NCBI GenBank assembly: GCA_965223545.1
Contig: OZ245006.1
Span: 7,008,001-7,072,000, forward strand
DNA length: 64,000 bases
Direction of reading: 5' to 3'
Source of the DNA: Planctomycetota bacterium
GTDB taxonomy: Bacteria; Planctomycetota; UBA1135; UBA2386
How positions within the stretch are numbered: position 1 is the stretch's first letter; each line of letters opens with the position of its first letter. Positions 2,801 through 60,300 of the stretch are shown here, piece by piece. The notes beneath the pieces were generated by a model. That model saw nothing but the letters and a program-made list of their open reading frames with translations. It did not search any database and was not told the origin of the DNA. The position numbers were made by a program, and so were the translations under genes.

Positions 2801-4414
2801 ATGGATCAGACTCTGAAGGCGCTCGTTCGGTACTTGGAGGAGGGAAAACCCGAGCTGAAGATCGCGGCGACCCAAGTGCTGGGGGAACTGGCGCCGAAGG
2901 ACGCGGCGGTCGCCAAGGCGCTGGCGGAGCGCCTGTCGCGCGAGGAGTCGTTCTTGACTCCGTTCGTGTTGGAGGCCCTGGGGCGGATCCACACGCCGGA
3001 ATCGGTCGCGGTGTTGGTCGAGCGGTTGCACGTCGGCGGCACCGTCGCCGAGCGCGTGACCCACTTGTTGACCCACATGGGCGGCGGCGTGGTCAAGGCG
3101 TTGGCACCGATGTTCGACGGGGCGGACGCCGAGCTGCGTGACCGAATCCTCAGCATCGTCGGCGGGCAGCGCGACAAGGACGCGGTGCAGTTCTTGCTGA
3201 AGGCGCTGCTGCACCACGATCCGGCGATCTCGGAGAAGGCCCGCGAGGTGATGGCGGTGCAGGTCGACGAGTTCGGCGAGAAGGAGCGCGCCGCGGTCAA
3301 GTCCGGCCTGGACAAGGCGCTCGCCGCCAACAAGGTGTCGTCGCTGACCCCGGTCGCGATCGCCGACGCGGTCGGCGTGTTGGGGCGGCTGGATGCCGCC
3401 GGTAGCCGCGCGACGCTGCTGCGGTTCGCCACGCCGAAGCACGAGGGTATCGTCCGCCAGGCCGCGCTGCGGGCACTGGAGGACGTTGCGCTGACCCCGG
3501 CGCAAGCGGCCACGGTGGTGTCGTACGTGAAGGAGGACGACATGACCCACGTCGTGCGGCCGGCGATGCAGGTGCTCGATGGCCGCACCGAGTGGAACGC
3601 GTCGGCTGGCGACACGCTCGGTCGCCTGCTCGACAGCGATAGCGAGGAGCGCGCACTGTTCGCTCTGCGTGCGCTGCGCGGGCGGCGCACCGAGGCGATG
3701 GCCAACCACTGCCTCAAGTTCTTGTTCGACGACGAGGCCGAGTTCCAGCGCGCTGCGGCCGAGGCCCTGGCCGCCAACTCCGCCGCGCTGAAGCCGCTGC
3801 TGAAGGCGCTGCAGGGTGAGCGCAGCGTCGACCGAGCGCGCCTGCTGAGCAGGCCGCTCGCCGCGCTGGCGGCCAAGCTGACCGCGGCGCAGCTGAAGAG
3901 CTTGATCGAGAAGACGGCCAAGCTGGTCACTGCCGGCGAGCCGATGGGCGACGTCTACCTGAGTGTCGTTGCCGCGGCACCGGACGGGCCCGGGCAGCTG
4001 GTCGACAAGGCGGTGCGGCTGCGGCGCGCGCGGCGCGTCGACGAGGCCCTCACCCTGATGATTCGGTTGGCGCAGCTCGACCGATTGCCGGACGAGGGGC
4101 GCTACCAAATCGGAGTGGCGCGGTTGATGGCCGATGCCGCGGAGAGCCGGCCCGCCGAGCGCAAGGAAGCCGGCGATGCGACGATGGGCTACTTCGCCCA
4201 CCTGATCCGGGCCGACTTTCCGCTGTTCGAGCGCCTGAAGAAAGAGGGGCAGCTGCGGCCGGAGGATCTCCTCCGGGTGGGACGGCACTTCGCCGAAGGC
4301 GTCGCTCAAGAGCGGCGCGTGGGCGGCCAGCTGCTGCACCTCGTGGCGCAAAAGCACGGCAAGCAGCGCGTCGGCGAGGAGGCCAAACTGATGCTGCGCA
4401 CCGAAGGGCTCTGA
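2801..4414 (+). CDS. HEAT/armadillo-repeat alpha-solenoid protein
   Basis: Repeated helical units (LEALGRI, VRQAALRAL, QRAAAEALA) and a natural codon pattern. Confidence 0.75.
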   Translation: MDQTLKALVRYLEEGKPELKIAATQVLGELAPKDAAVAKALAERLSREESFLTPFVLEALGRIHTPESVAVLVERLHVGGTVAERVTHLLTHMGGGVVKALAPMFDGADAELRDRILSIVGGQRDKDAVQFLLKALLHHDPAISEKAREVMAVQVDEFGEKERAAVKSGLDKALAANKVSSLTPVAIADAVGVLGRLDAAGSRATLLRFATPKHEGIVRQAALRALEDVALTPAQAATVVSYVKEDDMTHVVRPAMQVLDGRTEWNASAGDTLGRLLDSDSEERALFALRALRGRRTEAMANHCLKFLFDDEAEFQRAAAEALAANSAALKPLLKALQGERSVDRARLLSRPLAALAAKLTAAQLKSLIEKTAKLVTAGEPMGDVYLSVVAAAPDGPGQLVDKAVRLRRARRVDEALTLMIRLAQLDRLPDEGRYQIGVARLMADAAESRPAERKEAGDATMGYFAHLIRADFPLFERLKKEGQLRPEDLLRVGRHFAEGVAQERRVGGQLLHLVAQKHGKQRVGEEAKLMLRTEGL

Positions 4415-5192
4415 GCCTCCGGGTCCGCAAATCTTCGCGCGGCGAAAACCTTTCGGAAGGCTCGATGCCGCTGGAACTTCGACAACGCGGCTCCCGGAGG
4501 CTCGAAGACAACACTGGCCTCTGGGCTCAGCGCGGCCGCCGGCGACCGCCGGACCCGCGGCCGATGCTCGGGTCGCGGAATACTCCGTTCTTGGTTGCGG
4601 CCTCGGCCGCGCTGAGCCTCCGGCGCCTCGAATCTTCGAGCTTCGACAACATTTTCGAGGCGACGTCGCTGCCATGGCAACGTCGCCGCGGCGCCGGAGG
4701 CTCGGAGAGACAGTGCCTCCTGGCTCAGCGCGGCGGCGGATGTGTCAGGCCTTCCAAGCTGCTCCGGAAAAAGCGGCATCCGAGTCTGGTTGCGGCCGTG
4801 GCCGCGCTGAGCCTCAGGGTCCACAAATCTTCGCGCGGCGACAACCTTTCCGAAGGCTCGATGCCGCTGGAACTTCGACAACGCAGCTCCCGGAGGCTCG
4901 AAGACAACACTGGCGTCTGCGCTCAGCGCGGCCGGCCGGCAAAGTGGGAATCGCGGGCACTGCTACTGTCGCGGTGACACTCCGTCTTTGGTTGCAGCCC
5001 TGGCCGCGCTGAGCGTCCGGGGCCGAGAATCTTCGCGCGGCGACAACCTTTCCGAAGGCCGGTCGTCGTCAGGACTTCGATACTGCAACTCCCGGACGCT
5101 CGAAAGCAACACTGGCGTCTGCGCTCAGCGCGGCCGGCCGGCAAAGTGGGAATCGCGGGCACTGCTACTGTCGCGGTGACACTCCGTCTTTG
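4411..5192. repeat. Mosaic array of four ~200-bp structured repeat units (REPIN/BIME-like), left part of locus A
   Basis: (G)CTGAGC motif at 4411, 4611, 4806 and 5008; each unit is bounded by GGCCGCGCTGAGC...GCTCAGCGCGG(CC); homologous array at 55518-60300. Confidence 0.9.
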
Positions 5193-5207
5193 ATATCTCC
5201 TAAGTCA

Positions 5208-5213
5208 TGTCAA
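5208..5213 (-). promoter_or_regulatory. Outward-facing -35 box (TTGACA) completing a sigma70-like promoter on circularisation
   Basis: The joined ends give TTGACA-N17-TATGTG, with the -10-like hexamer at 7125-7130. Confidence 0.6.
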
Positions 5214-5255
5214 GGGGTTTTCGCTGGGGCTCGACATCGCGTGTGCACGGCTTGT

Positions 5256-6758
5256 TCAGGACTCTTCCACAAGACCAGGGAAGTGTTCTTGCATGAGATC
5301 ACCGATCGGGTGAGGTTGACGTGGGGATTCCACGGCCAGGCCTGTGGCGTCCATTGGGCGGCCACTCAAGTCCCTCGTCGTCGGAGTCCCCACTCGTCCC
5401 TGTCGCCGTTGGTCGCGCTCATGCCGCTGTGGCGCGACGATGCTGCGCGTGAACTTGGCTGCGATGAGCGCGCGCGCGGCAACCTTCGTGAGCTCGTTGC
5501 CGTCGGCGTCTCGCAGGACGTAGCGGACTTGCGTCGACGCCGGCTTGTCATCGGCGCGCTGGCTGTCGCGACGCTTCAGGAGGGCGTAGACGCGGCGCGC
5601 CATCTTGCCAGCCAATGCGATGAGGATGAGGTTGTGGTGATCACCTGCGGCGTAGCGGCGAGCGTAGTACGCCGCGAAATCCGGATCCCACTGGCGAGCG
5701 ACGTCAGCTGCTAGGTAGAGGTACTTCTTGAGTACTCGTTGGCCGGTTTTGGTGATTGGCATCGAGGGGTCGCTCATGCCCGTCTGCTTCCGGCGTGGAC
5801 ACAGTCCGCAGTAGCTCACGAACTTCTTGCCGTTCGAGAACCGCGCGATGTCGCCTACCAAGGCTTCGATGGCCGCAGCGATCGTGGGACCGACGCCGCG
5901 CAGTTGCTCGAGTGTTCGGTCAGGATCGACGCCCAGGTAGAGCTTCTTGATCTTTGCGTCGAGCTTGCGAACGTCCGTGTTCTTGCGCTCGATCTCATCC
6001 AGCTCGTACACCACATCCTCTTGGATGGCCTCGTAGTCGAACGGCATCTGCCCCGCAGCTCGCAGCTCAGCGTAGTACTCGGCGGCCTGTCGGCAGGACT
6101 CGAGCACGCGGTCGACCAAGCACGGGTCATGCGTTCCCTTGGATCGCTTCGTCAAGAAGCGCTCCAAGCGACTCTTCCCAAGGCCGACCGCTTTCACCGG
6201 ATCGACGTAGCGCCGCAGAAACCCCATCTTAGCGGCACTGAACTTCTCTGCCCCCAAGGCCTTCATGAGGCTGGGATTCGCCAGTACCAGTATCGCGTGC
6301 ACACGACGCTTGTGGTCGCTGAGCTCGCGCGCCAACCGCTCACGCCGCTTCACGAGTCGACGGATCGTCGTCTCGTCGGCAGTTGGAACACGCAGCTGGT
6401 GGACGCCCTTTGGATCCATCTGCGGCAGACGCGCAGCGGCCTCGGCGTCTACTACGTCGGTTTTGGTGTGCTTGCTATAGAACTTCCGCAGGTCGCTCAG
6501 CTTCTGTGGTTTGCTCACGTAGATCTGGAACCCTGCGGCGTTCACGTGCGCCGCGATGGGCAGCCACGCCAACCCCGTTGGTTCCATCACGAAGCTCACC
6601 GGACCCTCGGCACCTTCCTGTGCACGGCGCAGCAGAAGGTCAATACCCTCACGGCTGTTCTCGACTGAAAACGGTCTGCCCCGAGACTTCGCACCATCCA
6701 GAACGACGGCTCGGTGCTTGCTCCTCAAGCCGAGATCCAATCCAACGAATCGATTCAT
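5256..6758 (-). CDS. IS110-family DEDD recombinase/transposase, 500 aa
   Basis: GLDLG, MEPTG and KTDVVDA (DEDD); GVGPTIAA...RFSNGKKFVSYCGLCP...QTG Tnp domain; C-terminal extension. Confidence 0.95.
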   Translation of the reverse strand: MNRFVGLDLGLRSKHRAVVLDGAKSRGRPFSVENSREGIDLLLRRAQEGAEGPVSFVMEPTGLAWLPIAAHVNAAGFQIYVSKPQKLSDLRKFYSKHTKTDVVDAEAAARLPQMDPKGVHQLRVPTADETTIRRLVKRRERLARELSDHKRRVHAILVLANPSLMKALGAEKFSAAKMGFLRRYVDPVKAVGLGKSRLERFLTKRSKGTHDPCLVDRVLESCRQAAEYYAELRAAGQMPFDYEAIQEDVVYELDEIERKNTDVRKLDAKIKKLYLGVDPDRTLEQLRGVGPTIAAAIEALVGDIARFSNGKKFVSYCGLCPRRKQTGMSDPSMPITKTGQRVLKKYLYLAADVARQWDPDFAAYYARRYAAGDHHNLILIALAGKMARRVYALLKRRDSQRADDKPASTQVRYVLRDADGNELTKVAARALIAAKFTRSIVAPQRHERDQRRQGRVGTPTTRDLSGRPMDATGLAVESPRQPHPIGDLMQEHFPGLVEES

Positions 6759-6789
6759 GTCCCCTCCATGTTCAACGAGTGAGTGTCGA

Positions 6790-7115
6790 CGAGAGGACTC
6801 TCCCTACCCGCGCAGTCCGCCTGAGGAGGCGAGTCGCCAAAACGGTTCGTGTTTCGGGGCCGTGATTTCTCACGCCGCCAATCTCCTAAATCGGGTCCCC
6901 CACGCGGGAGGAGAGTCGCAGAACCAAATGAGGGGCCGCTCGAAGCGCCACCATTGCGGCAGATCGCGAAACCTCTCCGTCGCACGCCGGGGGACCCTAA
7001 GCTCTCTTGCGGCCGATGACCAGACTCCCGACACGACTCCTGCGGCTGCACCATCGCGCGAGTCTTCCACACCGCTACGGCGCGACGGGTGTGGAGAACT
7101 CTAGCTTCGCAGATC
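6790..7115 (-). ncRNA. Predicted bridge RNA of IS110 element 1 (boundaries approximate)
   Basis: Nested stems (6893-6900/6990-6997; CGTGA-GAAA-TCACG at 6861-6874). Loop segments match the target (6954-6960, 6922-6928) and the element ends (6881-6889, 6841-6846). Confidence 0.7.
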
Positions 7116-7132
7116 ATGGAACCACACATACC

Positions 7133-7167
7133 GTTGCGGCCCTGGCCGCGCTGAGCGTCCGGGGCCG
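7133..7167. repeat. Right remainder of repeat locus A
   Basis: GTTGCGGCCCTGGCCGCGCTGAGCGTCCGGGGCCG, nearly identical to 4991-5025. Confidence 0.9.
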
Positions 7168-7192
7168 CTCGCTCGCGAACGGCCCCCCTGCC

Positions 7193-7972: not shown

Positions 7973-8052
7973 CGCCGGAGCGTCGCGTGGGCGGTGGGGT
8001 GCGTCAAGCTTGGCGCTTGTGTGGGTGTGGCGCAGGCCGGAGAATCGAGAGC

Positions 8053-13392: not shown

Positions 13393-13484
13393 GGCTCGCA
13401 GAAGTCTACCTCGCCTGCGCGGCCACGCCGGCGCCATAATGCTCCCGACCGACTCCCCACTGGGTCTCCTCCTCGGATCCCGCG

Positions 13485-36999: not shown

Positions 37000-37089
37000 G
37001 ACGTACGGAGTCAGGCTCGATTTTCTCGCTTGGCGGCGGTGCATCCGCACCGCCGCCAAGCGAGAAAATCGAGCCTGACTCCGTACGTC
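37000..37089. repeat. Perfect inverted repeat, 43-bp arms with a 4-nt loop
   Basis: GACGTACGGAGTCAGGCTCGATTTTCTCGCTTGGCGGCGGTGC-ATCC-exact reverse complement. Confidence 0.95.
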
Positions 37090-46043: not shown

Positions 46044-46694
46044 ATGACTGCGGTCCTGATCACGGCCGGTCCGACCCGGGAGCACCTGGACGACGTTCGA
46101 TTCCTGAGCAACGCGAGCAGCGGGCGGATGGGGTACGCCCTCGCCGCCGCCGCGCAGCGGGCGGGACACGACGTCGTCTTGGTGTCGGGCCCGACCCACT
46201 TGCCGGCGCCGCGCGGCGTGCGCACCGAGCACGTCGTCTCGGCGCTCGAGATGCAGGCCGCGGTGCAGCGCTGTCTGGAGCAGGATGCGTTGGTGTTCGG
46301 CGTCGCCGCGGTCGTCGACGCGCGGCCGCGGCAGCGCTGGCCGGGCAAGCCGCCGAAGGACGCGGTCAAAGGCCCGATCGAGCTGGTGCCCAATCCGGAC
46401 ATCATCGCCGGAGTGGCGGACGCCGGCCGGGCGCGCGCGGTCGTCGGCTTCGCGCTGCAGGCCGAGGGCGACGGCGGCCTCGAGGCGGCGCTCGCCCGCG
46501 GGCGGCAGAAGATGCAACAAAAGCGTCTCGACGCCATCGCGGTCAACACCGCGGCGGCGCTCGGGGCGGACCGCAGCGAGGTCTGGGTGCTGCGCGCGGA
46601 CGGCGGCGAGGAGCGCCTGCCGCCGCAGAGCAAGGACCTGACTGCGGCGCGGCTCTGTGAGTTGGGGATCGAGATATGGCAAGCGAAGCGGTAG
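46044..46694 (+). CDS. coaB: Phosphopantothenate-cysteine ligase (stand-alone CoaB domain)
   Basis: LITAGPTREHLDDVRFLSNASSGRMG, NPDII and VGFA. Confidence 0.85.
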   Translation: MTAVLITAGPTREHLDDVRFLSNASSGRMGYALAAAAQRAGHDVVLVSGPTHLPAPRGVRTEHVVSALEMQAAVQRCLEQDALVFGVAAVVDARPRQRWPGKPPKDAVKGPIELVPNPDIIAGVADAGRARAVVGFALQAEGDGGLEAALARGRQKMQQKRLDAIAVNTAAALGADRSEVWVLRADGGEERLPPQSKDLTAARLCELGIEIWQAKR

Positions 46695-49372
46695 CCCGGC
46701 GCAATCGGCGCCACTTCGTCCCCGTCGACGAGGCACCCGGGCCGGGGCTGTCGAGCCGCGCGCGCGAGGTGGTGGCGCTGCTGGTCATCGGCGTTTGCCT
46801 GTACTTGGTGTTGTCGCTGTCCACGTTCGTGCTACCGGCGCCGATGGAGACCGCCGTCCCGCGCGGCGGTCTGCGCAACACCGGCGGCGTCGTGGGGCAC
46901 TACCTGGCCCACGGTCTGCTGTTCGTCTTCGGCTTCGCCGCCTACTTGCTCGTCGGCTTCGGCCTCCTCTACGGGATGCTGCTGATCTTGCAGCGGCCGC
47001 TGCGGTCGCCGCAGCTGAAAGCGCTCGGCGCAGTCGCGTTCACCGCGTTGGTCGCACTCTTGTTGGCCGGGCCGAGCGGCTTGGCGGGGCTCTGCGACGC
47101 CGCGCCCTACGGGGCCGGCGGCCGGCTCGGCGCCAACCTGTCACCCAAGTTGCAGGCCGCGTTCGGCGGGGCGGGTCGGTTGCTGTTGCTGATCTTCGGC
47201 GCGCTGGTGTCGCTCATGCTGGCGACCGAGTGGCTGCTGACCGGCATGGTGCGAGAGGGGGTCGGTGGCGTGGGCGCCGGCGTCGGGCAGCTGCGCGCGC
47301 GATTGGCGGAGCGGCGTGGCGAGGCCGATGTGGCGGTAGCTGAGGACGAGGAGGAGCACGAGGGCGAAGACGAAGACGAAGACGAAGAGGACGAGGAAGA
47401 CGAGGCTGACGAGGAGGACGAGGAAGACGAAGACGAGGAATACGAAGAGGACGAGGAAGAGGAGGAAGACGAGGAGTACGAGGACGAAGACGAAGAAGAC
47501 GAGGAAGACGAAGAGGAAGGCGAGGAGGAAGATGATCCCGGCGACGTCGAGGAAACCGGCGAGGACGCCGACGGCGTGCCGGAACCCGCTGCCGAGGCGC
47601 CGCCGCCGGCGAAGCCGGCGCGCCGCCGGGCGGAGACGGGGCGCGCAGCCGCGGCGCGCTCCGGCGCCGCGCCCGCCCGGCGGGCGGTCCCGGTGCGCAA
47701 GCCGCAGCCCCGCCGGCGCAAGGGCCCGGCGATGCTCCCCTTCGTCGACGCCGACTACCCGTTCCCGCCCCACGAGCTGTTCCGCGAGCCGGTCGAGGTC
47801 GACGACTCGGCGGCGCGGTCGGTGATCGAGCAGAATGCCCGCGCCATCGAGCGGCGGCTGGGGTCGTTCAAGATCGGCGCAGCGGTGGTGGGGGTCAGCC
47901 AGGGGCCGGCGGTGACCCAGTACGAGCTCCGCCTAGAGGAGGGCATCAAGGTCAGCCGCATCAACAGCTACGAGGCCGACTTGGCGGCGGCGCTGCGCGC
48001 GGTCTCGGTGCGCGTGGTGGCGCCGATCCCGGGCCGCGACACGATCGGCATCGAAGTGCCGAACGAGGAGCGGCAGATGGTGGTCATGCGCGAGCTGCTC
48101 GACCTGTTCGGCCGCGCCGAAGACCAGGCGATCCCGTTGTTCCTCGGCAAGGACGTCGCCGGCGAGCCCATCGTCGAGGACCTGGCCCGCATGCCCCACT
48201 TGCTGATCGCCGGCACCACCGGGTCGGGCAAGTCGGTGTGCATCAACGCCATTTTGCTGTCCGTTTTGATGACGCGCACGCCGCGGCAGGTGCGGCTGGT
48301 GCTGATCGACCCCAAGATGGTCGAGCTGCAGCACTTCAAGGCGGTGCCCCACCTCGCGTGCGAGGTGGTGACCAACATGAAGAAGGCGCCCGGCGTGCTC
48401 GAGTGGGCGGTCGAGGAGATGGAGAAGCGCTACGCGCTGTTCAGCAGCGTCGGCGTCAACCACATCCGCTCCTACAACAAGCTCGGCCAGGCCGAGCTCG
48501 AGCGCCGGCTGCAACGACCGGTGGAGCCGGCCGACGTCACCCTGCCCTACCAAGTGGTGGTCATCGACGAGCTGGCCGATCTGATGGCCGTCGCGCACAA
48601 GGAGGTCGAGGAGTCGATCCAGCGCCTGGCGCAGAAGTCGCGGGCGGTGGGGCTGCACGTGATCCTGGCGACCCAGCGGCCGTCGACCGACGTCATCACC
48701 GGCGTGATCAAGGCCAACCTGCCGTGCCAGATCGCGTTCAAGGTCAACCGGAAGATCGACTCGCGGGTGATTCTCGACAGCAACGGCGCCGAGAAGCTGC
48801 TCGGGCACGGCGACATGCTCTACGTGCCGCCCGGTGCCCACCGCGTGCTGCGCGCGCAGGGTGCGTTCGTTTCGGACGAGGAGATGCTGGCAGTCGTGGC
48901 CTACCTCGAGCAGCACGGGCCGCCGCCCGCCTTCATCCCCGACTTGGTGCAGAGCAAGACCGGCAGCAAGCGGGGGCCGCGCGACCGCGACGACCTGTAC
49001 GACAAGGCTGCCGAGGTGGTTCTCGGCCAGCAGCGCGGCTCGGCGACCCTGCTGCAGCGCGCGCTGTCGGTGGGCTACACCCGGGCGACGCGGCTGCTGG
49101 AGATGATGGAGGAGGACGGCATCGTCGGGCCGTTCGTCGGCTCCAAGTCGCGTGACGTGCTGTTGACCCTGGAGGAGTGGCAGGAGCGCGAGGCCGCCAT
49201 CGAAGCCGAGATGGACGAGATGGACGCCGAAGACCAGGCCGGCGGGGGCGAGTGGTCGGACGGGGCGGAGGCCGCGGCCGACGACGAGGGCCTGGACGAG
49301 GATCCGGGCGCGGGCGACGAGCCCCCGTGGGAGCCCGCGGACGCCGGCGAATCCGCGCCGCGCGCGCCGTAG
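46676..49372 (+). CDS. ftsK: DNA translocase FtsK with acidic linker
   Basis: 4TM N-domain; PHLLIAGTTGSGKS, IDELADLM, ATQRPS and GAEKLLGHGDML; gamma domain. Confidence 0.96.
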   Translation: MASEAVARRNRRHFVPVDEAPGPGLSSRAREVVALLVIGVCLYLVLSLSTFVLPAPMETAVPRGGLRNTGGVVGHYLAHGLLFVFGFAAYLLVGFGLLYGMLLILQRPLRSPQLKALGAVAFTALVALLLAGPSGLAGLCDAAPYGAGGRLGANLSPKLQAAFGGAGRLLLLIFGALVSLMLATEWLLTGMVREGVGGVGAGVGQLRARLAERRGEADVAVAEDEEEHEGEDEDEDEEDEEDEADEEDEEDEDEEYEEDEEEEEDEEYEDEDEEDEEDEEEGEEEDDPGDVEETGEDADGVPEPAAEAPPPAKPARRRAETGRAAAARSGAAPARRAVPVRKPQPRRRKGPAMLPFVDADYPFPPHELFREPVEVDDSAARSVIEQNARAIERRLGSFKIGAAVVGVSQGPAVTQYELRLEEGIKVSRINSYEADLAAALRAVSVRVVAPIPGRDTIGIEVPNEERQMVVMRELLDLFGRAEDQAIPLFLGKDVAGEPIVEDLARMPHLLIAGTTGSGKSVCINAILLSVLMTRTPRQVRLVLIDPKMVELQHFKAVPHLACEVVTNMKKAPGVLEWAVEEMEKRYALFSSVGVNHIRSYNKLGQAELERRLQRPVEPADVTLPYQVVVIDELADLMAVAHKEVEESIQRLAQKSRAVGLHVILATQRPSTDVITGVIKANLPCQIAFKVNRKIDSRVILDSNGAEKLLGHGDMLYVPPGAHRVLRAQGAFVSDEEMLAVVAYLEQHGPPPAFIPDLVQSKTGSKRGPRDRDDLYDKAAEVVLGQQRGSATLLQRALSVGYTRATRLLEMMEEDGIVGPFVGSKSRDVLLTLEEWQEREAAIEAEMDEMDAEDQAGGGEWSDGAEAAADDEGLDEDPGAGDEPPWEPADAGESAPRAP

Positions 49373-49502
49373 CCCGACCCGCTCCGCGCCGTGTCACTGT
49401 TGCGGTGGCGCGCACGCGCCGCTACACTGCGCCGGCCGGCGGTAGTCCGCGCACGGTCAGAACAGCCGCGGAGCCGCTCTGGCACCTGCCTGGGAGGGCA
49501 AC

Positions 49503-51293
49503 ATGTCTGTGCAGACCTTCGCGGAGCCGGCGCGTGGCTCCAATCCTCGTCTGGGCTGGGCTTGGCCCATGCTCCCCGCCACGGTGGCGATGTTCTGCTT
49601 GACGTCGCTGATCTGCTACCACGTGTGGTGGGACGGCGCGGTCGAAGCCAGCGGCCTCTGGCAGTCGTTGACCGTCGGGATCTACCGATTCTTCGGCTTC
49701 GCGCCCGCCGTCGTGCTGTCGCTCATGGTGTTGGTGTGGAGCACCATCTGGTACGTCAGCGGCGCCATCGAGCGGCCGCTCGCACGCGTGCTCAAGGTGC
49801 TCGCGCTGACGCTGAGTCTGGCGATCGTCACCAGCCTGCGCGCCGACCCGTCCGAGGTCGTGCAGGGTGGCGTGATCGGCGAGTTCTTGGCCGTCCGGCT
49901 GCAGAGCGTGGTCGGGCACACGGTGAGCCTCGTGCTCATCGTGCCGGCCGTGGTGTGTTCGTTCCTGCTGGCGACGGACTTCCTGTTCCACCGCTACTTC
50001 GAGGACGCCACCGTGGACGGCGGCGAAGAGGCTGGTGTCGAGGCCGAGGCGGTTGCCGAGATGCAGGCGTTGCGGCTGGATGGTGCGGGTGCCGCCGTGC
50101 TGGAGCGTCCGGCGCCGGCGCGTCCGCAGGTGGTCGGTGCCGCCGGGGACGAGGAGGAGCGCGCCGAAGAACGTGCCGAAGAGGGCGCCGGCCAGGTCGA
50201 CCGGGAGGAGGCCCTCGGAGACGAGGACGAAGCCGCGGACGGAGACGCCGACGGCGTGATCGAGATGGCGGACGACTCGCCCTACCGGCGGCGCCGATGG
50301 CGCCGCTACGCGCACCTCGTCGTCGACTCGGAGCGGCTCCGCCGACACCCGCGCGGGGATGCCGACGACGAGGACGAGGCCAGCACTGGTGCACCGGCAG
50401 GGCTCGAACGAGAGCAAGCCACCGAGACGGTGACCGTGCTGGGGCGGCGCCGCGCGGCGGCCCTCGACCGGGACGTCGAGGACGTCGAAGACACCGACGA
50501 GCCGGTCGGGATCGCCGAGGTGGGCGAATTGGAGGAAGAGGAGACCGTCGTGCTGGCGGATGGCGATGCGACCGACAGTGAGCTCGGCGAGGGCGAGCTG
50601 GTTGAAGAGGAGCTCGAGGAAGACGTCGAGGACGAAGCCGAAGAGGCGGAAGGCGACGACTACGAGGACGAGGAGTACGAAGAGGAAGAGGACGAAGAGG
50701 AAGACGAGGACGTCGACGACGAGGACGAGGTCGACGAGGAAGACGAGGAAGAATACGAAGACGAAGAGGAAGCCGAAGAGGAAGGCGCCGAGGACGAGCA
50801 GGACGTCGAGCTGAGCTACGAAGAGGATGCCGAGGACGCGGATGAAGAAGACGCGGACGCGGACGACGAGGAGTACGAAGAGGACGAAGACGAGGAAGAG
50901 GCCGAAGTCGAGGACGAAGACGAGTACGAAGAGGACGCCACCGAAGAGGACGCCAGCGACGAGGACGACGTCGACGTCCCACAGGATCCGCGCGCCGGGG
51001 CCGGCACCCCGCGGACCGTCGAAGTGCCCAAGCCAGAGTGGCGCGTCGGTGGTCAGCCGGCCTCGCGGCAGGGCACGCTGTTCGAGGCCGCTGGCGAGGA
51101 CGCGGGGCTGCTGGAGGATGCCACCGACCTCGTCGTGAGCGCCCGGCGCGCCAGCGTTACCCTGCTCCAGCGCCGGCTTCGGCTGAGCTACGTCGATGCC
51201 CGCGATCTGTTGGATGCCCTGCGTGCGCGGGGCGTGGTGGGCGGCGAGCGCGGCGCCCCGCAGGGTGAGGTGCTGGTGGAGTCGGCCTCATAG
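49503..51293 (+). CDS. FtsK-like protein: TM domain + acidic region + gamma domain, no ATPase
   Basis: N-terminal TMs with GGVIGEFLA...LLATDFL; C-terminal LLEDATDLVVSARRASVTLLQRRLRLSY...GVVG; no Walker motifs. Confidence 0.8.
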   Translation: MSVQTFAEPARGSNPRLGWAWPMLPATVAMFCLTSLICYHVWWDGAVEASGLWQSLTVGIYRFFGFAPAVVLSLMVLVWSTIWYVSGAIERPLARVLKVLALTLSLAIVTSLRADPSEVVQGGVIGEFLAVRLQSVVGHTVSLVLIVPAVVCSFLLATDFLFHRYFEDATVDGGEEAGVEAEAVAEMQALRLDGAGAAVLERPAPARPQVVGAAGDEEERAEERAEEGAGQVDREEALGDEDEAADGDADGVIEMADDSPYRRRRWRRYAHLVVDSERLRRHPRGDADDEDEASTGAPAGLEREQATETVTVLGRRRAAALDRDVEDVEDTDEPVGIAEVGELEEEETVVLADGDATDSELGEGELVEEELEEDVEDEAEEAEGDDYEDEEYEEEEDEEEDEDVDDEDEVDEEDEEEYEDEEEAEEEGAEDEQDVELSYEEDAEDADEEDADADDEEYEEDEDEEEAEVEDEDEYEEDATEEDASDEDDVDVPQDPRAGAGTPRTVEVPKPEWRVGGQPASRQGTLFEAAGEDAGLLEDATDLVVSARRASVTLLQRRLRLSYVDARDLLDALRARGVVGGERGAPQGEVLVESAS

Positions 51294-52969: not shown

Positions 52970-52978
52970 AGATCGAGC

Positions 52979-55522
52979 ATGGCGCAGGTGGTGGGCGGGG
53001 CGTTCCTGCCGGCGCTCGGCTTGGCGATGGCGGTGCTGGGCGCGCCGCTTCGCGCGCAGCCGGTTCCTGCACAACCGACCCCGCCGGCGGCGGGCCAGCA
53101 GGATCCCCGCCAGCAGGTCGAGGGGCTGCCGATCCGCTCGATCCGCATCGAGGGGGCGCGCGACGAGGAGGCCGTCCGCCGCCTGTTCCAAACCAGGGTG
53201 GGTGAGCCGCTGCGGGGTGCGGTGGTCGCCGAGGATCTGCGCAATCTGTGGAAGCAGCAGCGCTACCAGGTGACCGCGTGGGCGGCACCGACGCCGGACG
53301 GCGGCGTGGCCGTCACCTTCGAGGTGGTCGAGCCGTTCAGCTACGAGAACGTCGAGTTCTTGGGCATGGAGCGCTACACCGAGCAGGAAGCGCGCCAGAT
53401 GATCGACATCATCGGCGCGCAGCGCACCACCAGCACCGATGCGGACGACCACCGGCGCATCCTGTTGCAGCGCTACCGGCGCGACGGCTACCACTACGTC
53501 AGCATCCAGCTCGAGAAGGACGAGGAGACCAGCACGCTGCGCTTCGTCATCGACGAGGGGCCCGAGGTCGTCGTCCGCGAGGTCCACATCATCGGCAACA
53601 CCGCGTTTCCGGCCGACGCGCTGTGGGGACCCGACCTGATCGGCGGCGCCGAGCTGGAGAGCAAGCCGGCCAACTTGATCCGCGGCGTGCCCTTCAGCGA
53701 GGAGGTCGTCGACGAGGACGTGCAGCGCTTGCAGTGGTTCTACCGGGCGCGCGGCTACCGGGATGCGCGCGCGTTCCTCGCCGCGGTCGAGTTCACGCAA
53801 GCCCAGGACGAGGTCGATCTGACCCTTCGCGTCATCGAAGGACCGCGCTACAAGGTGCGCAGCGTGTCCATCGAGCACTTCGACGGGCTCGAGCCGACGG
53901 CGGAGCACCTGTATCCGCCCGAAGAGATCCTCGCCCGGCTCCAGCTCAAGCCCGGCGACGATTACGACCGCGACCTCGTCAACCGCGACAAGCGCGAGAT
54001 CGAGCGCTACTACGGCGAGCGCGGCCATCCGATGCAGGGTCGCTACGGCGCGGCGCCGTTGGTCGACGCGTTCGAGTGGGCGACGCAGAACTGGATGCAG
54101 CCGCGGGAGACGTTCGTCGAAGGCGCCGCCGAGATCGACCTGGTCTATCAGATCGTCGAGGGGTCGCCCAAGACGCTGCGCGACGTCACCATTCGCGGCA
54201 ACACCGACACCCAGGACCGGGTGGTGCGGCGCCGCGTGCAGGTGCGGCCCGGCGAGCAGCTGGACCTGAGCCAGGTCGACCGCTCGATCCAGCTGCTGTC
54301 GTCGCTGCGCTACTTCAACGACCCCGACACTCTGGTCGGGCCGCGCTTCGAGCTGCGGCCGGTGAGTGGCTCGCCCGATGTCGTCGACCTCGAGATCGAG
54401 GTGGCGGAGGGTGACACCGGCTCCTTCATCTGGGGAGCCGGTGTCAGCACCGGCGCCGGCGTGCAGGCGCGGTTCCAGCTGACCAAGCGCAACTTCGACC
54501 TGTTCCGCCTGCCCAGCTCTCCGGGCCTGTTCACCCTGTTCGACGAGATCACCACCAACAAGGCCTTCCACGGCGCCGGCCAGGAGCTCGAGCTGCTGGC
54601 GGCGCCCGGTACCGAGATCAGCACGTTCCGGCTGTCGTTCTACGAGCCGGACTTGTTCCGCGATCACGTCGACACCATCGGGCTGCGCGTGCAGGGGTTT
54701 CGCAGCATCCGCATCCTCGACTCGTTCGACAGCGACTCGCGCGGCCTGATCGTCGGCCTGCAACGCAACTTCACCGAGTCGGTGTCCCTCGGCGTCTCGC
54801 TGCGGCAGGAAACCACCGAGGTCGAGAGCGTCGACGCCAACGCCCCGGGCATCGTCTTCGACGCCGAGGGCCAGACCGAGATCCGCAGCGGCGCCATCCA
54901 GCTGTCGCTCCGGGACCTCGACGACTTCTTGTTTCCCAGCACCGGGTACGACGTTCTCGCCAGCGCCGAGATCGCCGGCGGACTGCTCGGCGGCGAAGAG
55001 GATTTCTACAAGCTGCGGTTGCGCGGTGAGTGGTTCCACCGCCTGGCGGTCGACGAACTCGAGCGGCCGCACGTGCTGCACCTGCGGCAGGACTTCGAGT
55101 ACGGCCACGCCTACTCGAACACCGACGATCTGTTCCTGACCGAGCGCTTCTACATGGGCGGCACCAATCTCCGTGGCTTCGACCAGCGCCGCGCCGGCCC
55201 GACGCAGTTCGGCCGTCCCCTGGGCGGCGAGGCCATGCTGCTGCTGCGCTCCGAGTACCTGTTCCCGCTGGTGTCCACCAGACAACAGCGCGCCATCCGC
55301 GAGGTCGAGCTCCTGCGCGGCGTGGTGTTCGCCGACGCGGGCCTGCTCGGCACCGGCATCGACGACGCCAGCTTCGGCGAGCTGCGCGCCAGCGTCGGAT
55401 TCGGGTTGCGGATCCACGTGCCGATTCTCGGTGTCCCCATCGCCCTCGACTTCGGCTTCCCGATCTCCTACGAGGGCACCGACGACCGGCAGGTGTTCAG
55501 CTTCTCGCTTTCGTCGCGCTGA
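52979..55522 (+). CDS. bamA: Outer membrane protein assembly factor
   Basis: POTRA repeats (IDEGP, IRGNTDTQDRVVRR); ERFYMGG.NLRGF; PIALDFGFPI. Confidence 0.9.
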   Translation: MAQVVGGAFLPALGLAMAVLGAPLRAQPVPAQPTPPAAGQQDPRQQVEGLPIRSIRIEGARDEEAVRRLFQTRVGEPLRGAVVAEDLRNLWKQQRYQVTAWAAPTPDGGVAVTFEVVEPFSYENVEFLGMERYTEQEARQMIDIIGAQRTTSTDADDHRRILLQRYRRDGYHYVSIQLEKDEETSTLRFVIDEGPEVVVREVHIIGNTAFPADALWGPDLIGGAELESKPANLIRGVPFSEEVVDEDVQRLQWFYRARGYRDARAFLAAVEFTQAQDEVDLTLRVIEGPRYKVRSVSIEHFDGLEPTAEHLYPPEEILARLQLKPGDDYDRDLVNRDKREIERYYGERGHPMQGRYGAAPLVDAFEWATQNWMQPRETFVEGAAEIDLVYQIVEGSPKTLRDVTIRGNTDTQDRVVRRRVQVRPGEQLDLSQVDRSIQLLSSLRYFNDPDTLVGPRFELRPVSGSPDVVDLEIEVAEGDTGSFIWGAGVSTGAGVQARFQLTKRNFDLFRLPSSPGLFTLFDEITTNKAFHGAGQELELLAAPGTEISTFRLSFYEPDLFRDHVDTIGLRVQGFRSIRILDSFDSDSRGLIVGLQRNFTESVSLGVSLRQETTEVESVDANAPGIVFDAEGQTEIRSGAIQLSLRDLDDFLFPSTGYDVLASAEIAGGLLGGEEDFYKLRLRGEWFHRLAVDELERPHVLHLRQDFEYGHAYSNTDDLFLTERFYMGGTNLRGFDQRRAGPTQFGRPLGGEAMLLLRSEYLFPLVSTRQQRAIREVELLRGVVFADAGLLGTGIDDASFGELRASVGFGLRIHVPILGVPIALDFGFPISYEGTDDRQVFSFSLSSR

Positions 55523-55616
55523 GCGTCGGGGGCCGAGGATGTTCGAGCGGCGAGCGGCACAACCTGTCGGAAGGCTCGATGCCGCTGGAACTTCGACAAC
55601 GCAACTCCCGGAGGCT
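55518..55616. repeat. Left part of repeat locus B
   Basis: GCTGAGC...GAAGGCTCGATGCCGCTGGAACTTCGACAACGCAACTCCCGGAGGCT, homologous to 4806-4898. Confidence 0.9.
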
Positions 55617-55982
55617 TCCATGAGAGGGGCGATCCCGTCAACAGCTCTTTGTCTGTGGATCTGTTCTTCTTGAGAATCTGGGCGCCTTGGCGCCGCCCTG
55701 CGCGACAAGCTTCGGACTCCGCAGGCTTCCATACGCACTCTGATGGCCTCGTCCGAGACCGGTGCACGATGAGATCCGTCCGACCCGGCGCAGCTTTCTT
55801 CCATGAGAGGGGCGATCCCGTCAACAGCTCTTTGTCTGTGGATCTGTTCTTCTTGAGAATCTGGGCGCCTTGGCGCCGCCCTGCGCGACAAGCTTCGGAC
55901 TCCGCAGGCTTCCATACGCACTCTGATGGCCTCGTCCGAGACCGGTGCACGATGAGATCCGTCCGACCCGGCGCAGCTTTCT
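55615..55982. repeat. Exact tandem duplication, period 183 bp, of the IS right end
   Basis: 55615-55799 equals 55798-55982, overlapping at CT. Confidence 0.93.
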
Positions 55983-56080
55983 CGATAACGGCCTCGAGGG
56001 CCAAGCCTCCGGTCGCTGTCGCCGGGATCGGGCGGTGAGTCTTCAGCAGTGCAGGAGCGGCATCACGCCAGGTTCCTCCA
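55880..56080 (-). ncRNA. Predicted bridge/seek RNA of IS1111-type element 2 (boundaries approximate)
   Basis: Stem-enclosed loop with CCGGAGGCU (56004-56012) and UCGAG (55981-55985) matching the target; second loop with AUCUCAUC and AUGGAAG matching the circle junction. Confidence 0.75.
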
Positions 56081-57068
56081 CGGTATTCGGTTGGTTGGGG
56101 GTGGGGCGATCATGGTTGGGTCATACCGCGGTGTGGGCAGCTACGCGGTCGCTGTTGTGGAGTGGGTCGTAGACCAAGCCATGACGCCACAGCCGATGCA
56201 GCAGTAGCGCGAGCTTGCGGGCAACCGCGACCGCCGCGCGTTTCCTCGCGCCGCGGCCGCCGCGGGCGATCAGGCGTTGCCCGAAGCGCCGGAGGTCACA
56301 GTCCTTGCCGAACGGGCCGAGGATGTAGTGCGCACACTGCACCAGAAGCCGTCTCAGATAGCCGTCGCCAGCCTTGCTGATCGACAGCTCCGGATTGCTG
56401 TCGCCCGACGCGAAGCTCTTTGGGCACAAGCCGAGCCAGGAGCCCACGCGGCGGCTTTCGGCGAATCGTGTCGGATCCTCGATCGTCAGCACGAACGCGG
56501 TCGCTGTGACCGGCCCCACGCCGTTGACTTGCTGCACGACGGCGACCTCGGGGTATCGCTCGCGGCTCGCCTCGACGAGCGCCTTGTCGAGCTCGTCGAT
56601 CCGGCGGGACAGGTCGGCGATCAAGTCCAGCAGCGGCTCCGCCGCAGTGAGTAGCAGGACCGGCATGGACTCGCGAGCTCGCTTCGGGAACGCCGCGGTC
56701 GATGCCGACGGCAGCCGGACGCCGAAGCCCTTCGCCAGGCTCCGGACCTGCTGCACTGCCATCGTCCGCATCCTCACCAGCAGGTCGCGCGCACGAATGA
56801 CCGACAGGTCGGCCTGTGCCTGCTCGCTGCGGTGGTGGATCGTGCCGAGCAACTCGGGCATCCCTGCCTCCAGGCGAGCCAGGGTCTCGGCATCGCGCCG
56901 GTCGGTCTTGCGAGGATCCTTGGCGATCAGCTGCACTCGGCGCGGGTCCACGACGTGAACGTCGTAGCCCTCCGAGCGCAACCGCCGAGACATCCAGGCC
57001 GACTGCGAGCCGTAACTGTTCCGGCAACCACGTCTGCAAACGCTCGAGTCGTTCGCCACGATGCGGCC

Positions 57069-57398
57069 ATGTCGAAGCGAGCAAGTCGTCGCCGTGAGAT
57101 CCGGCAGGTTCTCGCGCTCCGCGAGCAGGAAGGGTTTTCGCTGCGTGCGCTCTCGGAGCGGTTCGGTATCCCGATCGGGACGCTGAGTTGGTGGTCGCAT
57201 CGGTTGCGATCGGAGGAGAGCACTGGGTTCGCGGAGGTCCGAGTCGTCGATCGCGATGGTCGGGGCCGGACGAGTAACGACGAGGGCGAGAGCTCGAGCC
57301 TTGTGCGGCTCAGGTTCCCGGCGGGCGTCGTCGCGGAGTTCGAGGGCGCGATTGCTCAAGACATCGCGTACCGCTTGCTGGACTCTGTGGCCGACTGA
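57069..57398 (+). CDS. tnpA: IS66 TnpA accessory HTH protein
   Basis: GFSLRALSERFGIPIGTLSWW...FAEVRV. Confidence 0.85.
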   Translation: MSKRASRRREIRQVLALREQEGFSLRALSERFGIPIGTLSWWSHRLRSEESTGFAEVRVVDRDGRGRTSNDEGESSSLVRLRFPAGVVAEFEGAIAQDIAYRLLDSVAD

Positions 57399-57811
57399 TG
57401 CTGGCCTTCCCAGCGGGCGTGCGCGTGTACGTCGCCAACGAGCCAACCGACATGAGGAAGTCGTTCGACGGGCTGAGCGCGATCGTCCAGCACAGCTTTC
57501 ATCGGGATCCGTTCGATGGCGACGTCTTCGCGTTCTTCAACCGGCGTCGCGATCGCGTGAAGATCTTGTTCTGGGATCGCAACGGTTTCTGGATCTCGAT
57601 GAAGCGACTCGAGCGCGGCACGTTTGACAGTTGGCGTCCCAAGAGCGGCGACGCCACACATGTCGAAGTCGAGCGCGCACAGCTCGTGATGTTGCTCGAA
57701 GGGATTGATCTGAAATCCGCCAAGTTTCGTCGGCATTACTCGCGCTCTGTTCGTATCAATGGTCGCGATGGGCGGTCGCAAGCAAACGGTCAACGTCGAC
57801 GCACTGGATGA
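57398..57811 (+). CDS. tnpB: IS66 accessory protein TnpB
   Basis: PTDMRKSFDGL, FFNRRRDRVKILFWD and KRLERGTF. Confidence 0.95.
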   Translation: MLAFPAGVRVYVANEPTDMRKSFDGLSAIVQHSFHRDPFDGDVFAFFNRRRDRVKILFWDRNGFWISMKRLERGTFDSWRPKSGDATHVEVERAQLVMLLEGIDLKSAKFRRHYSRSVRINGRDGRSQANGQRRRTG

Positions 57812-59381
57812 GGCGCAGCTACGTGCCTTGATCCCGGATCTGCTCACGCAGATCTCGTCGCTGAAGTCGCAGATGTCCGACCTTCAGCGCATGCTGTTCG
57901 GTCGCCGCTCGGAGAAGAGCCGCTACATCGACCCGCGACAGCTGCTGCCGTTCGCGCAAGAGGCTGTAGAGGAAGCGGGAGCCGACGCCAAGGCGGCCGA
58001 AGAAGAGGCCGAAGAGATCACCGTCCCCGAGCACAAGCGCAAGCGCACCAAGCGACGCAAGGACTTCCCAGAGCATCTTCCGCGGCAACGCTCCGTATTC
58101 ACGATCGAGGGCGAGGACCTGCTGTGCCCTTGCTGCGGCAACGGCCGTCGGGAGTTCGGCGAAGAGGTCTCGCAGGAGCTCGAGCGCATCGAGCTCTCGT
58201 TCGTCCACCAGATCGTGAGGAAGAAGTACTCCTGCGCGACCTGTCAGGGCTACGTCGTCGTCGCCGCGGGCCCCACCCGAGTCCTCGACAAAAGCATCCT
58301 CGGCCCCGGCTTCCTTGCGCAGATCATCTTCGACCGCTTTGCCAACCACATGCCGTACGCGCGGTTGGAGAAGAAGTACGCAGCCGAGGGGCTCAGCCTG
58401 TCGCGTAGCGTCCTATGCACTTCGGCGATGCGCTGTGCCGAGCTCCTGAAGCCCGTGTTCGATGCCCATGTCGAGCAAGTTCTCGAGAGCCTCGACACCT
58501 CCGTCCTGCAGGTGGACGACACCTACGGCAACCAGCGCAACGGCCGAAACCCCGGACAGAAAAAGATCCACGTGTGGGCGTGGCGCGATCAACACGCCGG
58601 GGTTTTCTACACCGCTACGGACTCACGCAATCGCGGCAGCCCCAAAGAGGTCTTGGGCGACCGCGGTGGTCGGTTGCAGTGCGATGGCCATGACTGCTAC
58701 AGCGATCTCGATCCAACCAGCATCGCGCGCATCGGATGCTGGGCACACCTTCGTCGCTACTTCGTGAATGCGCGGAAGCTCGGCGACTCGACCACGGAGA
58801 AGGCTCTGGGCTGGATCGGCAAGCTGTTCGCGATCGAGAGCGTCGCCAAGAAGGGCAAAGATGGTCGACCCTTCACGGATGACGAGCTGGTCGAGGTCCG
58901 TCAGCGCGACTCTCGCCCGATTGCGAACGCGCTCAAGGCTTGGCTCGAGCAGATGCACATCGACCAGCCGAGCCTCCCGAAGGGGCCGCTCATGGAGGGA
59001 GTTCGCTACGGGCTCAACCAGTGGCCTGCTCTCGAGCGCTTCCTGACCGATGGCCGCATCCGCGAGATCTCGAACAACGGTTGCGAGCGTGCTCTGCGTG
59101 CAGTCGTGATCGGCAAGAAGAACTGGCTCTTCTTCGGATCCGAGGACGGCACCCAAGCTTCACTCATCCTCTTGAGTCTCGTCCAGTCGTGTCGAGAGCA
59201 TGGCATCAGCCCGCTGCTCTACCTGCGGGATGTGCTTCACGCGATCTCGACCACTCCTGCCTCCCAGGTCGGTCAGCTGACTCCGCGTGGCTGGATGCTG
59301 GGACGGCAACGGCGTGCCCAGATCGCCAAAGCCGACAACGCGATCGACAACATCGTGCGTCAGTTGTTCGTGGGCTCGTAG
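57759..59381 (+). CDS. tnpC: IS66 DDE transposase
   Basis: FGRRSEK, Zn ribbon, LQVDDT, LQCDG, CWAHLRR and SNNGCERALR..IGKKNWLF. Confidence 0.95.
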   Translation: MVAMGGRKQTVNVDALDEAQLRALIPDLLTQISSLKSQMSDLQRMLFGRRSEKSRYIDPRQLLPFAQEAVEEAGADAKAAEEEAEEITVPEHKRKRTKRRKDFPEHLPRQRSVFTIEGEDLLCPCCGNGRREFGEEVSQELERIELSFVHQIVRKKYSCATCQGYVVVAAGPTRVLDKSILGPGFLAQIIFDRFANHMPYARLEKKYAAEGLSLSRSVLCTSAMRCAELLKPVFDAHVEQVLESLDTSVLQVDDTYGNQRNGRNPGQKKIHVWAWRDQHAGVFYTATDSRNRGSPKEVLGDRGGRLQCDGHDCYSDLDPTSIARIGCWAHLRRYFVNARKLGDSTTEKALGWIGKLFAIESVAKKGKDGRPFTDDELVEVRQRDSRPIANALKAWLEQMHIDQPSLPKGPLMEGVRYGLNQWPALERFLTDGRIREISNNGCERALRAVVIGKKNWLFFGSEDGTQASLILLSLVQSCREHGISPLLYLRDVLHAISTTPASQVGQLTPRGWMLGRQRRAQIAKADNAIDNIVRQLFVGS

Positions 59382-59772
59382 CCCAGCCAGCTACGGACGG
59401 TCACCGTCGTGGCCGGCGCCGGTGCCGACACCCGGTGGCCGAAGTTTCTGTTCATGCGCCGGTTCGGCGCGGCGCGAAGAACGTGCGTGCCGGAACAGTT
59501 ACTGCGAGCCGGCCTCGAGAGCGACTCTGGCGCCCGGGAAGTCGCTCAGCGCCTTCGAGAGCGCTGTCGGCGTCGTCGGGAAACTGCCCCGCGCAACGAC
59601 CGTCCGCGACGCGTCCAGTGCGCAGTAGTGGATGTTCCGATCGCCAATGTCGAGACCGATGGTCACGGGGGAGGTCTGAGCGGTAACTTTGGTCATGGGT
59701 CGATCTGCTCCTTTGATTTTGCAGCGCCATTGTGTGGCGACTGCGTCGGAGGGATCGACCCTCTCATCCCAT

Positions 59773-60300
59773 CTCGAAAGCAACACTGGCGTCTGCGCTC
59801 AGCGCGGCCGCCGGCGACCGCGGGACCCGCGACCGACGCTCGGGTCGCGGAATGCTTCGTGTTTGGTTGCGGCCTCGGCCGCGCTGAGCCTCCGGCGCCT
59901 CGAATCTTCGAGCTTCGACAACATTTTCGAGGCGACGCCGCTGACATGGCAACGTCGCCGCCGCGCCGGAGGCTCGGAGAGACAGTGCCTCCTGGCTCAG
60001 CGCGGCGGCGGATGTGTCCGGCCTTCCAATCCGCTCCGGCAAGAGCGGCATCCGAGTTTGGTTGCGGCCGTGGCCGCGCTGAGCCTCGGGGTCCGCAAAT
60101 CTTCGCGCGGCGACAACCTTTCGGAAGGCTCGATGCCGCTGGAACTTCGACAACGCAGCTCCCGGAGGCTCGAAGACAACACTGGCCTCCGGGCTCAGCG
60201 CGGCCGCCGGCGCCGGCGACCGCGGGACCCGCGACCGACGCTCGGGTCGCGGAATGCTCGGTGTTTGGTTGCGGCCTCGGCCGCGCTGAGCCTCGGGGTC
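59773..60300. repeat. Right part of repeat locus B (~2.5 units)
   Basis: GCTGAGC at 59883, 60078 and 60285; closely similar to 4500-4930. Confidence 0.92.

Follow-up and report, generated by a model that had tools for sequence, protein, structure and literature searches.

Two IS110-family elements at different positions of one repeat family in a Planctomycetota genome

In P. putida KT2440, every copy of ISPpu9 and ISPpu10 is reported to lie in the same repetitive extragenic palindromic (REP) family at the same position (PMC1525189, PMC12288879). ISPa11 and IS621 are also reported from REPs (PMC1525189, PMC12288879), and IS621 and IS1397 are both described as users of the palindromic units of E. 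coli (PMC2817692). The IS110 and IS1111 groups are distinguished by an RNA encoded upstream or downstream of the recombinase gene and by a reversed guide order (PMC11187229). Here, a stretch of 64,000 nucleotides (the window) from a Planctomycetota genome was analyzed, in which two arrays of a ~200-bp repeat are each split by an IS110-family element, designated as E1 and E2. It is very probable that both are recently active bridge/seek-RNA recombinase elements, guided by RNA onto the repeat.

That one REP family can host two IS110-family elements has been known since 2006, and the sharing is a new instance of a known habit. E1 and E2 resemble ISPpu9 and ISPpu10 in being two different IS110-family elements of one genome on one repeat family. 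Whereas ISPpu9 and ISPpu10 occupy the same position and both have a duplicated 2-base core, E1 and E2 occupy different positions, represent the IS110 and IS1111 groups, and the cores of E1 are unequal. No precedent for IS110-group and IS1111-group elements at two positions of one repeat was found in the literature searched, although this arrangement is a small step from ISPpu9/ISPpu10. Its unequal cores and a repeated scar set E1 apart as a variant that merits testing at the bench, and no earlier description of them was found in the literature. In the following, G000 is the source genome, C1 its chromosome, and G018 a genome of another genus; L-numbers are individual loci. Core and guide letters of E1 are given in gene direction.

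E1 and E2 in the repeat

The arrays and the elements in the window are as follows.
4412..7155, + strand: repeat array 1, four ~200-bp units with TGAG borders, the fourth split by E1
5193..7132, - strand: E1, IS110-group element, 1940 bp, 11 copies in G000
5256..6758, - strand: E1 recombinase, 500 aa, DEDD residues D8, E59, D101 and D104
55520..60290, + strand: repeat array 2, three TGAG-bordered units, the first split by E2
55617..59772, - strand: E2, IS1111-group element, damaged copy, CT cores at 55615-55616 and 59773-59774
55620..55636, + strand: right sub-terminal inverted repeat of E2, 3 nt from the core
56121..57011, - strand: E2 recombinase, C-terminal part
57012..59502, + strand: IS66 in the E2 gene, tnpB and tnpC identified, 2.49 kb, 8-bp target duplication
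59503..59696, - strand: E2 recombinase, N-terminal part
59751..59767, - strand: left sub-terminal inverted repeat of E2, 5 nt from the core, 7 nt with the core

The original prediction, made from the window alone, placed an IS110-type element in each array, and both junctions were confirmed in the window: E1 splits the fourth unit of array 1 between TTTG and GTTGCGGCC, and E2 splits the first unit of array 2 at CCGGAGG-CT-CGA, where CT is found at either side of the element. It also held that the two insertion positions are fixed and different, and a check for copies lying mostly outside the repeat or at variable positions was set in advance. This check was run genome-wide, and neither pattern appeared. 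All 11 E1 copies of G000 lie between TTTG and GTTGCGGC, 10 of them within the repeat, and the junction CCCGGAGG-CT-CGAA is found in 4/4 E2 copies. Bases of the repeat are present within 60 nt of 10/11 E1 and 4/4 E2 copies. The repeat (161 arm matches in 105 clusters in G000) makes up 0.38% of C1, and therefore this placement is not chance. One single unit (C1:6847540-6851047) holds both E1 and E2, 90 bp apart.

The lone E1 copy outside the repeat keeps the full 12-base motif, with no repeat bases within 60 nt. Free E1 12-mers are found 95 times in G000 against 0.9 expected; 92 of the 95 are close to repeat arms, so that one E1 copy in 11 outside the repeat fits the sequence alone. CAAA was chosen by all 11 copies among about 421 GCCGCAACC sites (p ~3e-7). 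Free E2 12-mers number 61, against 4 expected. In sequencing run X6, from another study, one contig joins the right end of E1 to a repeat copy.

The E1 recombinase scores 208.7 bits against the NCBIfam IS110 profile (NF033542, cut-off 140), with the DEDD RuvC and Tnp domains (PF01548, PF02371). Its predicted model shows an IS621-like fold with a C-terminal extension. About 60 conserved C-terminal residues (400-460) lie past the IS110 profile and are helical in the model. The 11 copies are mutually 100% identical, which suggests recent activity. E1 has non-coding regions of 374 bp upstream and 63 bp downstream of the gene and no long inverted repeats; the longest microhomology between its ends is 5 nt. 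A putative promoter would span the joined ends, where TTGACA (right end) would stand 17 bp from TATGTG (left end). E1 is similar to IS621/ISCro4, as these are described (PMC11208160, PMC11208158, PMC13626964), in the upstream RNA, the order of left target, right target, left donor and right donor guides (LTG-RTG-LDG-RDG), the REP-type target, the fold and the promoter parts at the two ends. It departs from IS621 in its 500-aa protein, which is extended at the C terminus and carries Thr in place of the Ser.

The intact form of E2 is 1474 bp between the CT cores. Three of the four G000 copies are intact, all of them elsewhere than the window. The recombinase of such an intact copy scores 230.2 bits, above the NCBIfam IS110 cut-off, and carries the DEDD and SG motifs. 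The sub-terminal repeats are 17 bp long and 16/17 identical; the left extension is 7 nt when the core is counted, and a 7-bp left-extension rule is reported for IS1111 elements (PMC11187229). The long non-coding region is downstream of the gene with guides in reversed order, and the IS1111 assignment is by architecture and profile. The claimed difference in architecture, IS110-type with upstream RNA versus IS1111-type with downstream RNA and sub-terminal inverted repeats, was borne out. E2 is similar to the IS1111 seekRNA elements ISEc11, ISPa11 and ISKpn4 as reported (PMC11187229) in its sub-terminal repeats, downstream RNA, reversed guide order and repeat target. It differs from them in a new target, in a duplication ending on its own guide-coding DNA, and in the window copy being broken by IS66. 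It had been claimed further that both target/donor pairs can be read from the window; this is the case for E1, and fails for the E2 protein, the gene of which is broken by IS66 there. Around nine more full or broken copies of this IS66 are present in G000, with 97-100% identity.

Predicted guide RNAs and the origin of the two targets

Predicted RNA cores and guides were located in the long non-coding regions.
6815..7005, - strand: predicted bridge RNA core of E1, upstream of the gene, target loop and then donor loop
6953..6960, - strand: left target guide of E1, 7 nt identical to the left target, with U as the next letter facing the final core base
6922..6928, - strand: right target guide of E1, complementary to core + CAAA
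6881..6889, - strand: left donor guide of E1, identical over 9 nt to the element's right end
6842..6850, - strand: right donor guide of E1, complementary to core + left end, with wobbles and one mismatch
55880..56045, - strand: predicted seek/bridge RNA core of E2, downstream of the gene
56004..56012, - strand: 5' target guide of E2, 9-nt identity to CCGGAGG-CT
55981..55985, - strand: 3' target guide of E2, complementary to CT-CGA
55909..55929, - strand: candidate donor guides of E2 (55923-55929 and 55909-55915), behind the target guides

The target guides of E1 are at the tip of a long stem, and its four guides follow the IS621 order. The second candidate donor guide of E2 is kept in orthologues together with the conserved ends. 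The cognate pair of target guides, ordered and 10-50 nt apart, was found in 0/2000 shuffles of the own region for E1 and E2 each. Crossed guide pairs (E1 guides in the E2 region and the reverse) are absent, and appear in 1/2000 shuffles each. Orthogonality of the two enzyme/RNA pairs is plausible, and orthogonal pairs are named as a need in a 2026 review (PMC13604230).

Covariation between guides and flanks was analyzed in orthologues. For E2, each test has six elements from six genomes, one per genome; L055, L057 and L060 were left out as same-genome copies, while L054 is without a left flank and L052 without a right one. The E1 set has eight elements, E1 and L082-L088 (50-56% identity), with both ends parsed, from 75 loci; outside it are L089, whose register does not fit, and L080, L081 and L090-L095, with an end missing or not parsed. 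The E2 orthologues (47-64% identity) keep their donor ends while their flanks differ, and the guides follow the flanks. For the 3' guide of E2, 28/36 positions match the flank (mean of pairings 11.5), and for the 5' guide, scored as the best of 7 offsets applied alike to all pairings, 30/36 match (mean 19.5); both are the best of 720 pairings. For E1, the left guide, scored as the best of two registers, matches at 42/48 positions (48/40320 pairings equally good) and the right guide at 31/32 (12/40320). The target guides of E1 were tested by permutation, while its donor guides were located and compared by eye. Guide-flank agreement was also seen by eye in L063, L066, L068 and L069. RNA guidance, as proposed in the original prediction, is well supported by the presence of the guides and by the covariation of the target guides with the flanks.

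Several points weigh against this reading. The elements in both sets are kin; four of the eight E1 relatives have one common target, and with distinct targets only the results become 1/24 and 1/120. When folded whole, the non-coding regions reach minimum energies no better than those of shuffles (z -0.94 for E1 and -0.33 for E2), and the donor loops fold uncleanly. In E1, Thr is found at the catalytic Ser position of the G-P-S/TG motif, where the alignment consensus is Ser; for enzymes of the IS1111 type, TG is given as a variant (PMC11187229). No circle junction was found in G000 or in the contigs of three runs, and contigs drop rare forms. RNA run X21 gave 0 reads and is neutral on this question.

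In the proposed mechanism, E1 and E2 would each circularize, and the circle junction would supply a promoter from which the RNA is expressed out of the long non-coding end. The target loop would pair with 11-12 bases of the repeat and the donor loop with the joined ends, and the recombinase would join the top strands just 3' of the 2-base core. The site would be chosen by sequence, E1 reading the foot of a widespread hairpin and E2 the inner stem arm. E2 would have been retargeted in this lineage, while E1 would come from a clade already aimed at the hairpin. In the E1 clade a core mismatch would be tolerated, as GU of both right guides would pair with target AC and form a G-T wobble with donor AT, and the top-strand letters would be kept. 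Occasional half-matched reactions at a decoy core could leave a 5-bp scar of E1 and a 183-bp duplication of E2.

An alternative is that the elements are recruited by the hairpin of the repeat, or by a host protein on it, with a secondary role for the RNA match. The presence of 10/11 E1 copies in the repeat and of two orthologues flanking the same hairpin would agree with this, and a preference of ISPpu9 for clustered REPs beyond sequence has been proposed (PMC12288879). However, one E1 copy sits at a bare motif, one of 11 outside the repeat fits sequence alone, and orthologues with other guides sit at other sequences, which makes recruitment by the hairpin very improbable. Guidance by RNA leaves the origin of the guides to be considered, for which the original prediction proposed that both evolved independently onto the same harbour. 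The two proteins can be aligned over only 70 residues, at 34% identity, and therefore the separate origin of the two RNAs is certain. For E2, the part of the claim that concerns this lineage stands. Its orthologues in five other genomes aim elsewhere with different guides, including G018, which has the homologous repeat with 57 exact arms. Three E2-like copies of G018 lie at another sequence, matching their own guide, in spite of this repeat, which indicates that E2 was retargeted in the present lineage or its ancestors. For E1, the claim did not hold in the same way. Two orthologues from other samples, L085 and L088 (54-55% identity), have nearly the same guides and target as E1; L088 lies beside the same hairpin, and two E1 orthologues flank the hairpin in all. 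The hairpin pattern was found in 15/301 genomes of the phylum, mostly followed by AAA or AA, with up to 43 copies outside G000 (0-1 for the reversed control). A search of 60 related genomes with E1 gave no relative exceeding 36% identity, which fits a recent arrival. In five hairpin-rich genomes, no E1 relative was found at E 1e-40, and a search for E1-type left junctions with one mismatch gave control-level counts only. Since the target is common with L085 and L088 and the hairpin is found in other genomes, E1 most likely arrived already aimed at the hairpin, and it is unlikely that both guides evolved in this lineage.

Together, the two elements make G000 a ready test bed for work on bridge recombinases, with two divergent enzyme-RNA pairs, known targets and donors, one unit with both sites, and natural guide variants.

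Unequal cores, scars and a duplication

The following features concern the junctions and ends of the two elements.
5193..5194, - strand: donor-side core of E1, AT
7133..7134, - strand: target-side core of E1, AC (GT on the + strand), unlike the donor-side core
55617..55982, no strand: right-end tandem duplication of E2, perfect, with a 183-bp unit

The empty E1 target has AC where the left and right guides overlap. After insertion, AC is retained on the left side, and AT stands on the right. All 11 right junctions in G000 read AT and none AC, and on the left 11 read AC and none AT; free E1 targets have AC 95 times and AT once. Among the eight E1-clade elements, the left core is AC in five, GC in one and AT in two, while the right core is AT in 8/8. 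The cores are non-identical in 6/8, and the guide dinucleotide tracks the left core. In L066, L068 and L069, which are more distant, GT is duplicated (by eye). E1 thus lacks the identical 2-base core at both junctions that is a feature of IS621; where IS621 is reported with CT at both junctions and scarless excision, E1 has AC/AT and two 5-bp scars.

In IS621, the top strand is reported to be cut 3' of the core (PMC13626964, PMC11208158), and the second core base (T) to be almost invariant (PMC11208158). From these two features, the E1 junctions are the expected product if unequal cores are joined on the top strand. Both right guides read GU, which could pair with AC and, by wobble, with AT. 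The unequal cores were also considered as proof of top-strand-only transfer, and this was dropped, because the bottom strands of IS621 are reported to be cut elsewhere and mismatch repair is allowed by the authors (PMC11208158). Both top-strand-only and Holliday-junction models therefore fit the E1 junctions. ISEc21 is reported to insert without duplication (PMC11187229), so that an identical core is an IS621-like feature and not family-wide; the case of ISEc21 may or may not be the same as the unequal cores of E1. No description of natural unequal cores was found in the literature; the boundary tables of bridge-RNA papers may list such elements.

Two repeat copies in C1 (537448-537464 and 611325-611341) have five extra letters exactly at the E1 site, composed of E1 end letters. 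As they belong to different unit subtypes, they probably arose separately. On the right, the cut point of the join is the normal one; on the left, the join falls at an AT that lies 5 bp within the element end, among 35 microhomologies of at least 3 bases in the E1 end regions. In E2, the duplicated 183-bp unit begins after the end core and stops on the CT inside the DNA encoding the 3' target guide of E2 itself. The unit end is CT-CGA, which in guide-coding DNA is by construction a perfect half target of the 3' guide. In run X1, the scar joint reappears (743 to 2679 on L225, depth 30), and exactly the 183-bp unit between the two cores is spanned by a contig of its own. X1 is possibly from the source of the assembly, and it argues against assembly error while not being an independent population.

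Chances are even that the E1 clade naturally recombines unequal core dinucleotides, and that its excision occasionally shifts to a decoy core lying 5 bp within the element and leaves a fixed, target-destroying scar. The same even odds cover E2, for which the corresponding risk would be a half-match reaction with the DNA that codes for its guide. Half-match partial excision at recurrent positions is reported for IS110 (bioRxiv 10.64898/2026.08.14.744561), which makes the scar and the duplication less novel and supports the mechanism. The E1 and E2 products resemble those of half-match excision and top-strand copy-out as reported (bioRxiv 10.64898/2026.08.14.744561, 10.1101/2025.10.25.684509) in one canonical and one non-canonical boundary, in top-strand joining and in tandem by-products. 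Unlike the circles and tandem repeats of these reports, the reciprocal chromosomal scar is fixed in G000, twice at the same base. The literature search gave no account of footprints left by IS110 excision.

The scars and the duplication could instead be ordinary slippage at microhomologies (TAT and CT) without a recombinase. The scar has a 3-base microhomology, and several repeat copies show slippage deletions at the same E1 target site. A search of 400 other phylum genomes gave no further instance of the scar motif, which is counted for slippage, though in the 60 related genomes searched with E1 no close relative was found either. The scar, moreover, rests on two sites and the duplication on one, which counts against a recombinase origin. 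On the other side, the two scars lie in different unit subtypes and both fall on a single one of the 35 microhomologies, with longer ones passed over; both also keep the normal right-hand cut point. One border of the duplication is precisely the element end and the other is CT-CGA, which the 3' guide matches perfectly, and recurrent half-match excision is reported for IS110 as described above. Slippage is rather unlikely.

The design of IS622 editing is reported to filter site pairs for an identical core (bioRxiv 2025.05.14.653916). If recombination of unequal cores is true, the identical-core rule of bridge-edit design would not be general, and AC or GC against AT would widen the programmable space. 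The scars would then be a genomic record of past IS110 excision. The departure of IS110 elements is disputed between scarless excision and copy-out without rejoining of the target (PMC11208160, PMC13626964, bioRxiv 10.1101/2025.10.25.684509), and the reproducible E1 scar is direct material for this question. In G018, a 14-bp left-end remnant of an E2-like element is fused to the right target at an array end (L040/L075, G018:C6:738353-738428), and 60 bp beyond is the left end of another E2-like element.

The ~200-bp repeat and other mobile elements

The TGAG borders are at 4412, 4613, 4808, 5010 and 7152 in array 1, and at 55520, 59885, 60080 and 60287 in array 2. Array 1 starts on the stop codon of a HEAT-repeat gene and array 2 on that of an Omp85/BamA gene. 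TGAG is present at 83/98 array starts of G000. At the array ends (n = 89), T is found in 85, G in 88, A in 84 and G in 83, and the bases outside the borders are mixed at both sides. The array start is the stop codon of a long open frame (at least 150 codons) in 55/83 arrays, against 18% of control sites, which are other TGAG sites. This agrees with the proposal of a safe harbour. The presence of both E1 and E2 on one repeat is probably explained by its abundance and by its position at gene ends, where insertion is harmless.

The repeat forms nested hairpins (z -1.87) and is high in copy number, palindromic, extragenic and clustered, as are REPs and bacterial interspersed mosaic elements (BIMEs). 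The foot of the hairpin is TTTGGTT followed by GCGGCC, and the GT(A/G)G head 5' of the palindrome is absent. In G000, no repeat arm lies closer than 1.5 kb to the two full-length genes for REP-associated tyrosine transposases (RAYTs), and a second repeat family is found on their flanks. The ~200-bp repeat works like a BIME and is not filed as a REP, because of the missing GTAG head and of the other repeat family around the RAYT genes. It is similar to the REP, BIME and REPIN systems with RAYTs, as reported (PMC2817692, PMC8266576), in having more than 100 copies, hairpins and composite tandem arrays at gene ends. It differs from these in lacking a GTAG-type head, in its head-to-tail ~200-bp units with TGAG at both borders, and in the other repeat flanking the RAYT genes of G000. 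The sole Y1/RAYT gene of G018 (L157, G018:C2:1076485-1076875) begins 3 nt beyond the TGAG that closes one of the ~200-bp units, and the second repeat family is present on both its sides as well; its position next to the unit is either chance or a hint at the mobilizer.

The repeat may be a non-autonomous element inserting at TGAG, its own end included, and such insertion would build tandem arrays. A single-strand HUH-type mobilizer is a guess. E2 was considered as the mobilizer and is given low odds: its 5' guide matches the unit start, but the other border mismatches the 3' guide. A possible link of the repeat to GxxExxY/PF13366 genes received no support, as neither G000 nor G018 has such a gene; no exact hairpin foot was found at nine GxxExxY/PF13366 loci from three other genomes. 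A short Y1/RAYT-like frame is present in 12 copies in C1 of G000 (e.g., 1355010 and 5691132) with near-identical surroundings. In the arm list, no repeat arm was found near the 12 multicopy weak Y1 matches of G000. In some arrays (C1:8049852-8051886 and 349311-349581), an arm runs into the reversed inner stem at the GAGCCTCCGG border, forming an inverted junction.

A third IS110-family element (~1648 bp, 461-aa frame) has 23 copies in C1 of G000 (e.g., 518233, 3913985 and 7726284), none of them in the window. In 22/23 copies it lies at GGAGC-CAG-GCTCC, the center of the second palindromic repeat family (173 matches), and the 23rd has the left half-site only. With this element, targeting of repeats is the rule in this genome. 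The second repeat family flanks the RAYT genes of L001 and L002, and two copies of the third element are in the flanks of L002. The window contains a perfect 43-bp inverted doublet of this family at 37000-37089.

Rfam gave 0 matches in the window at the gathering score. At 46676-51293 of the window, there are two adjacent FtsK-like genes, of which the second matches the membrane and gamma domains, with no match to the motor domain, and both encode long acidic low-complexity stretches.

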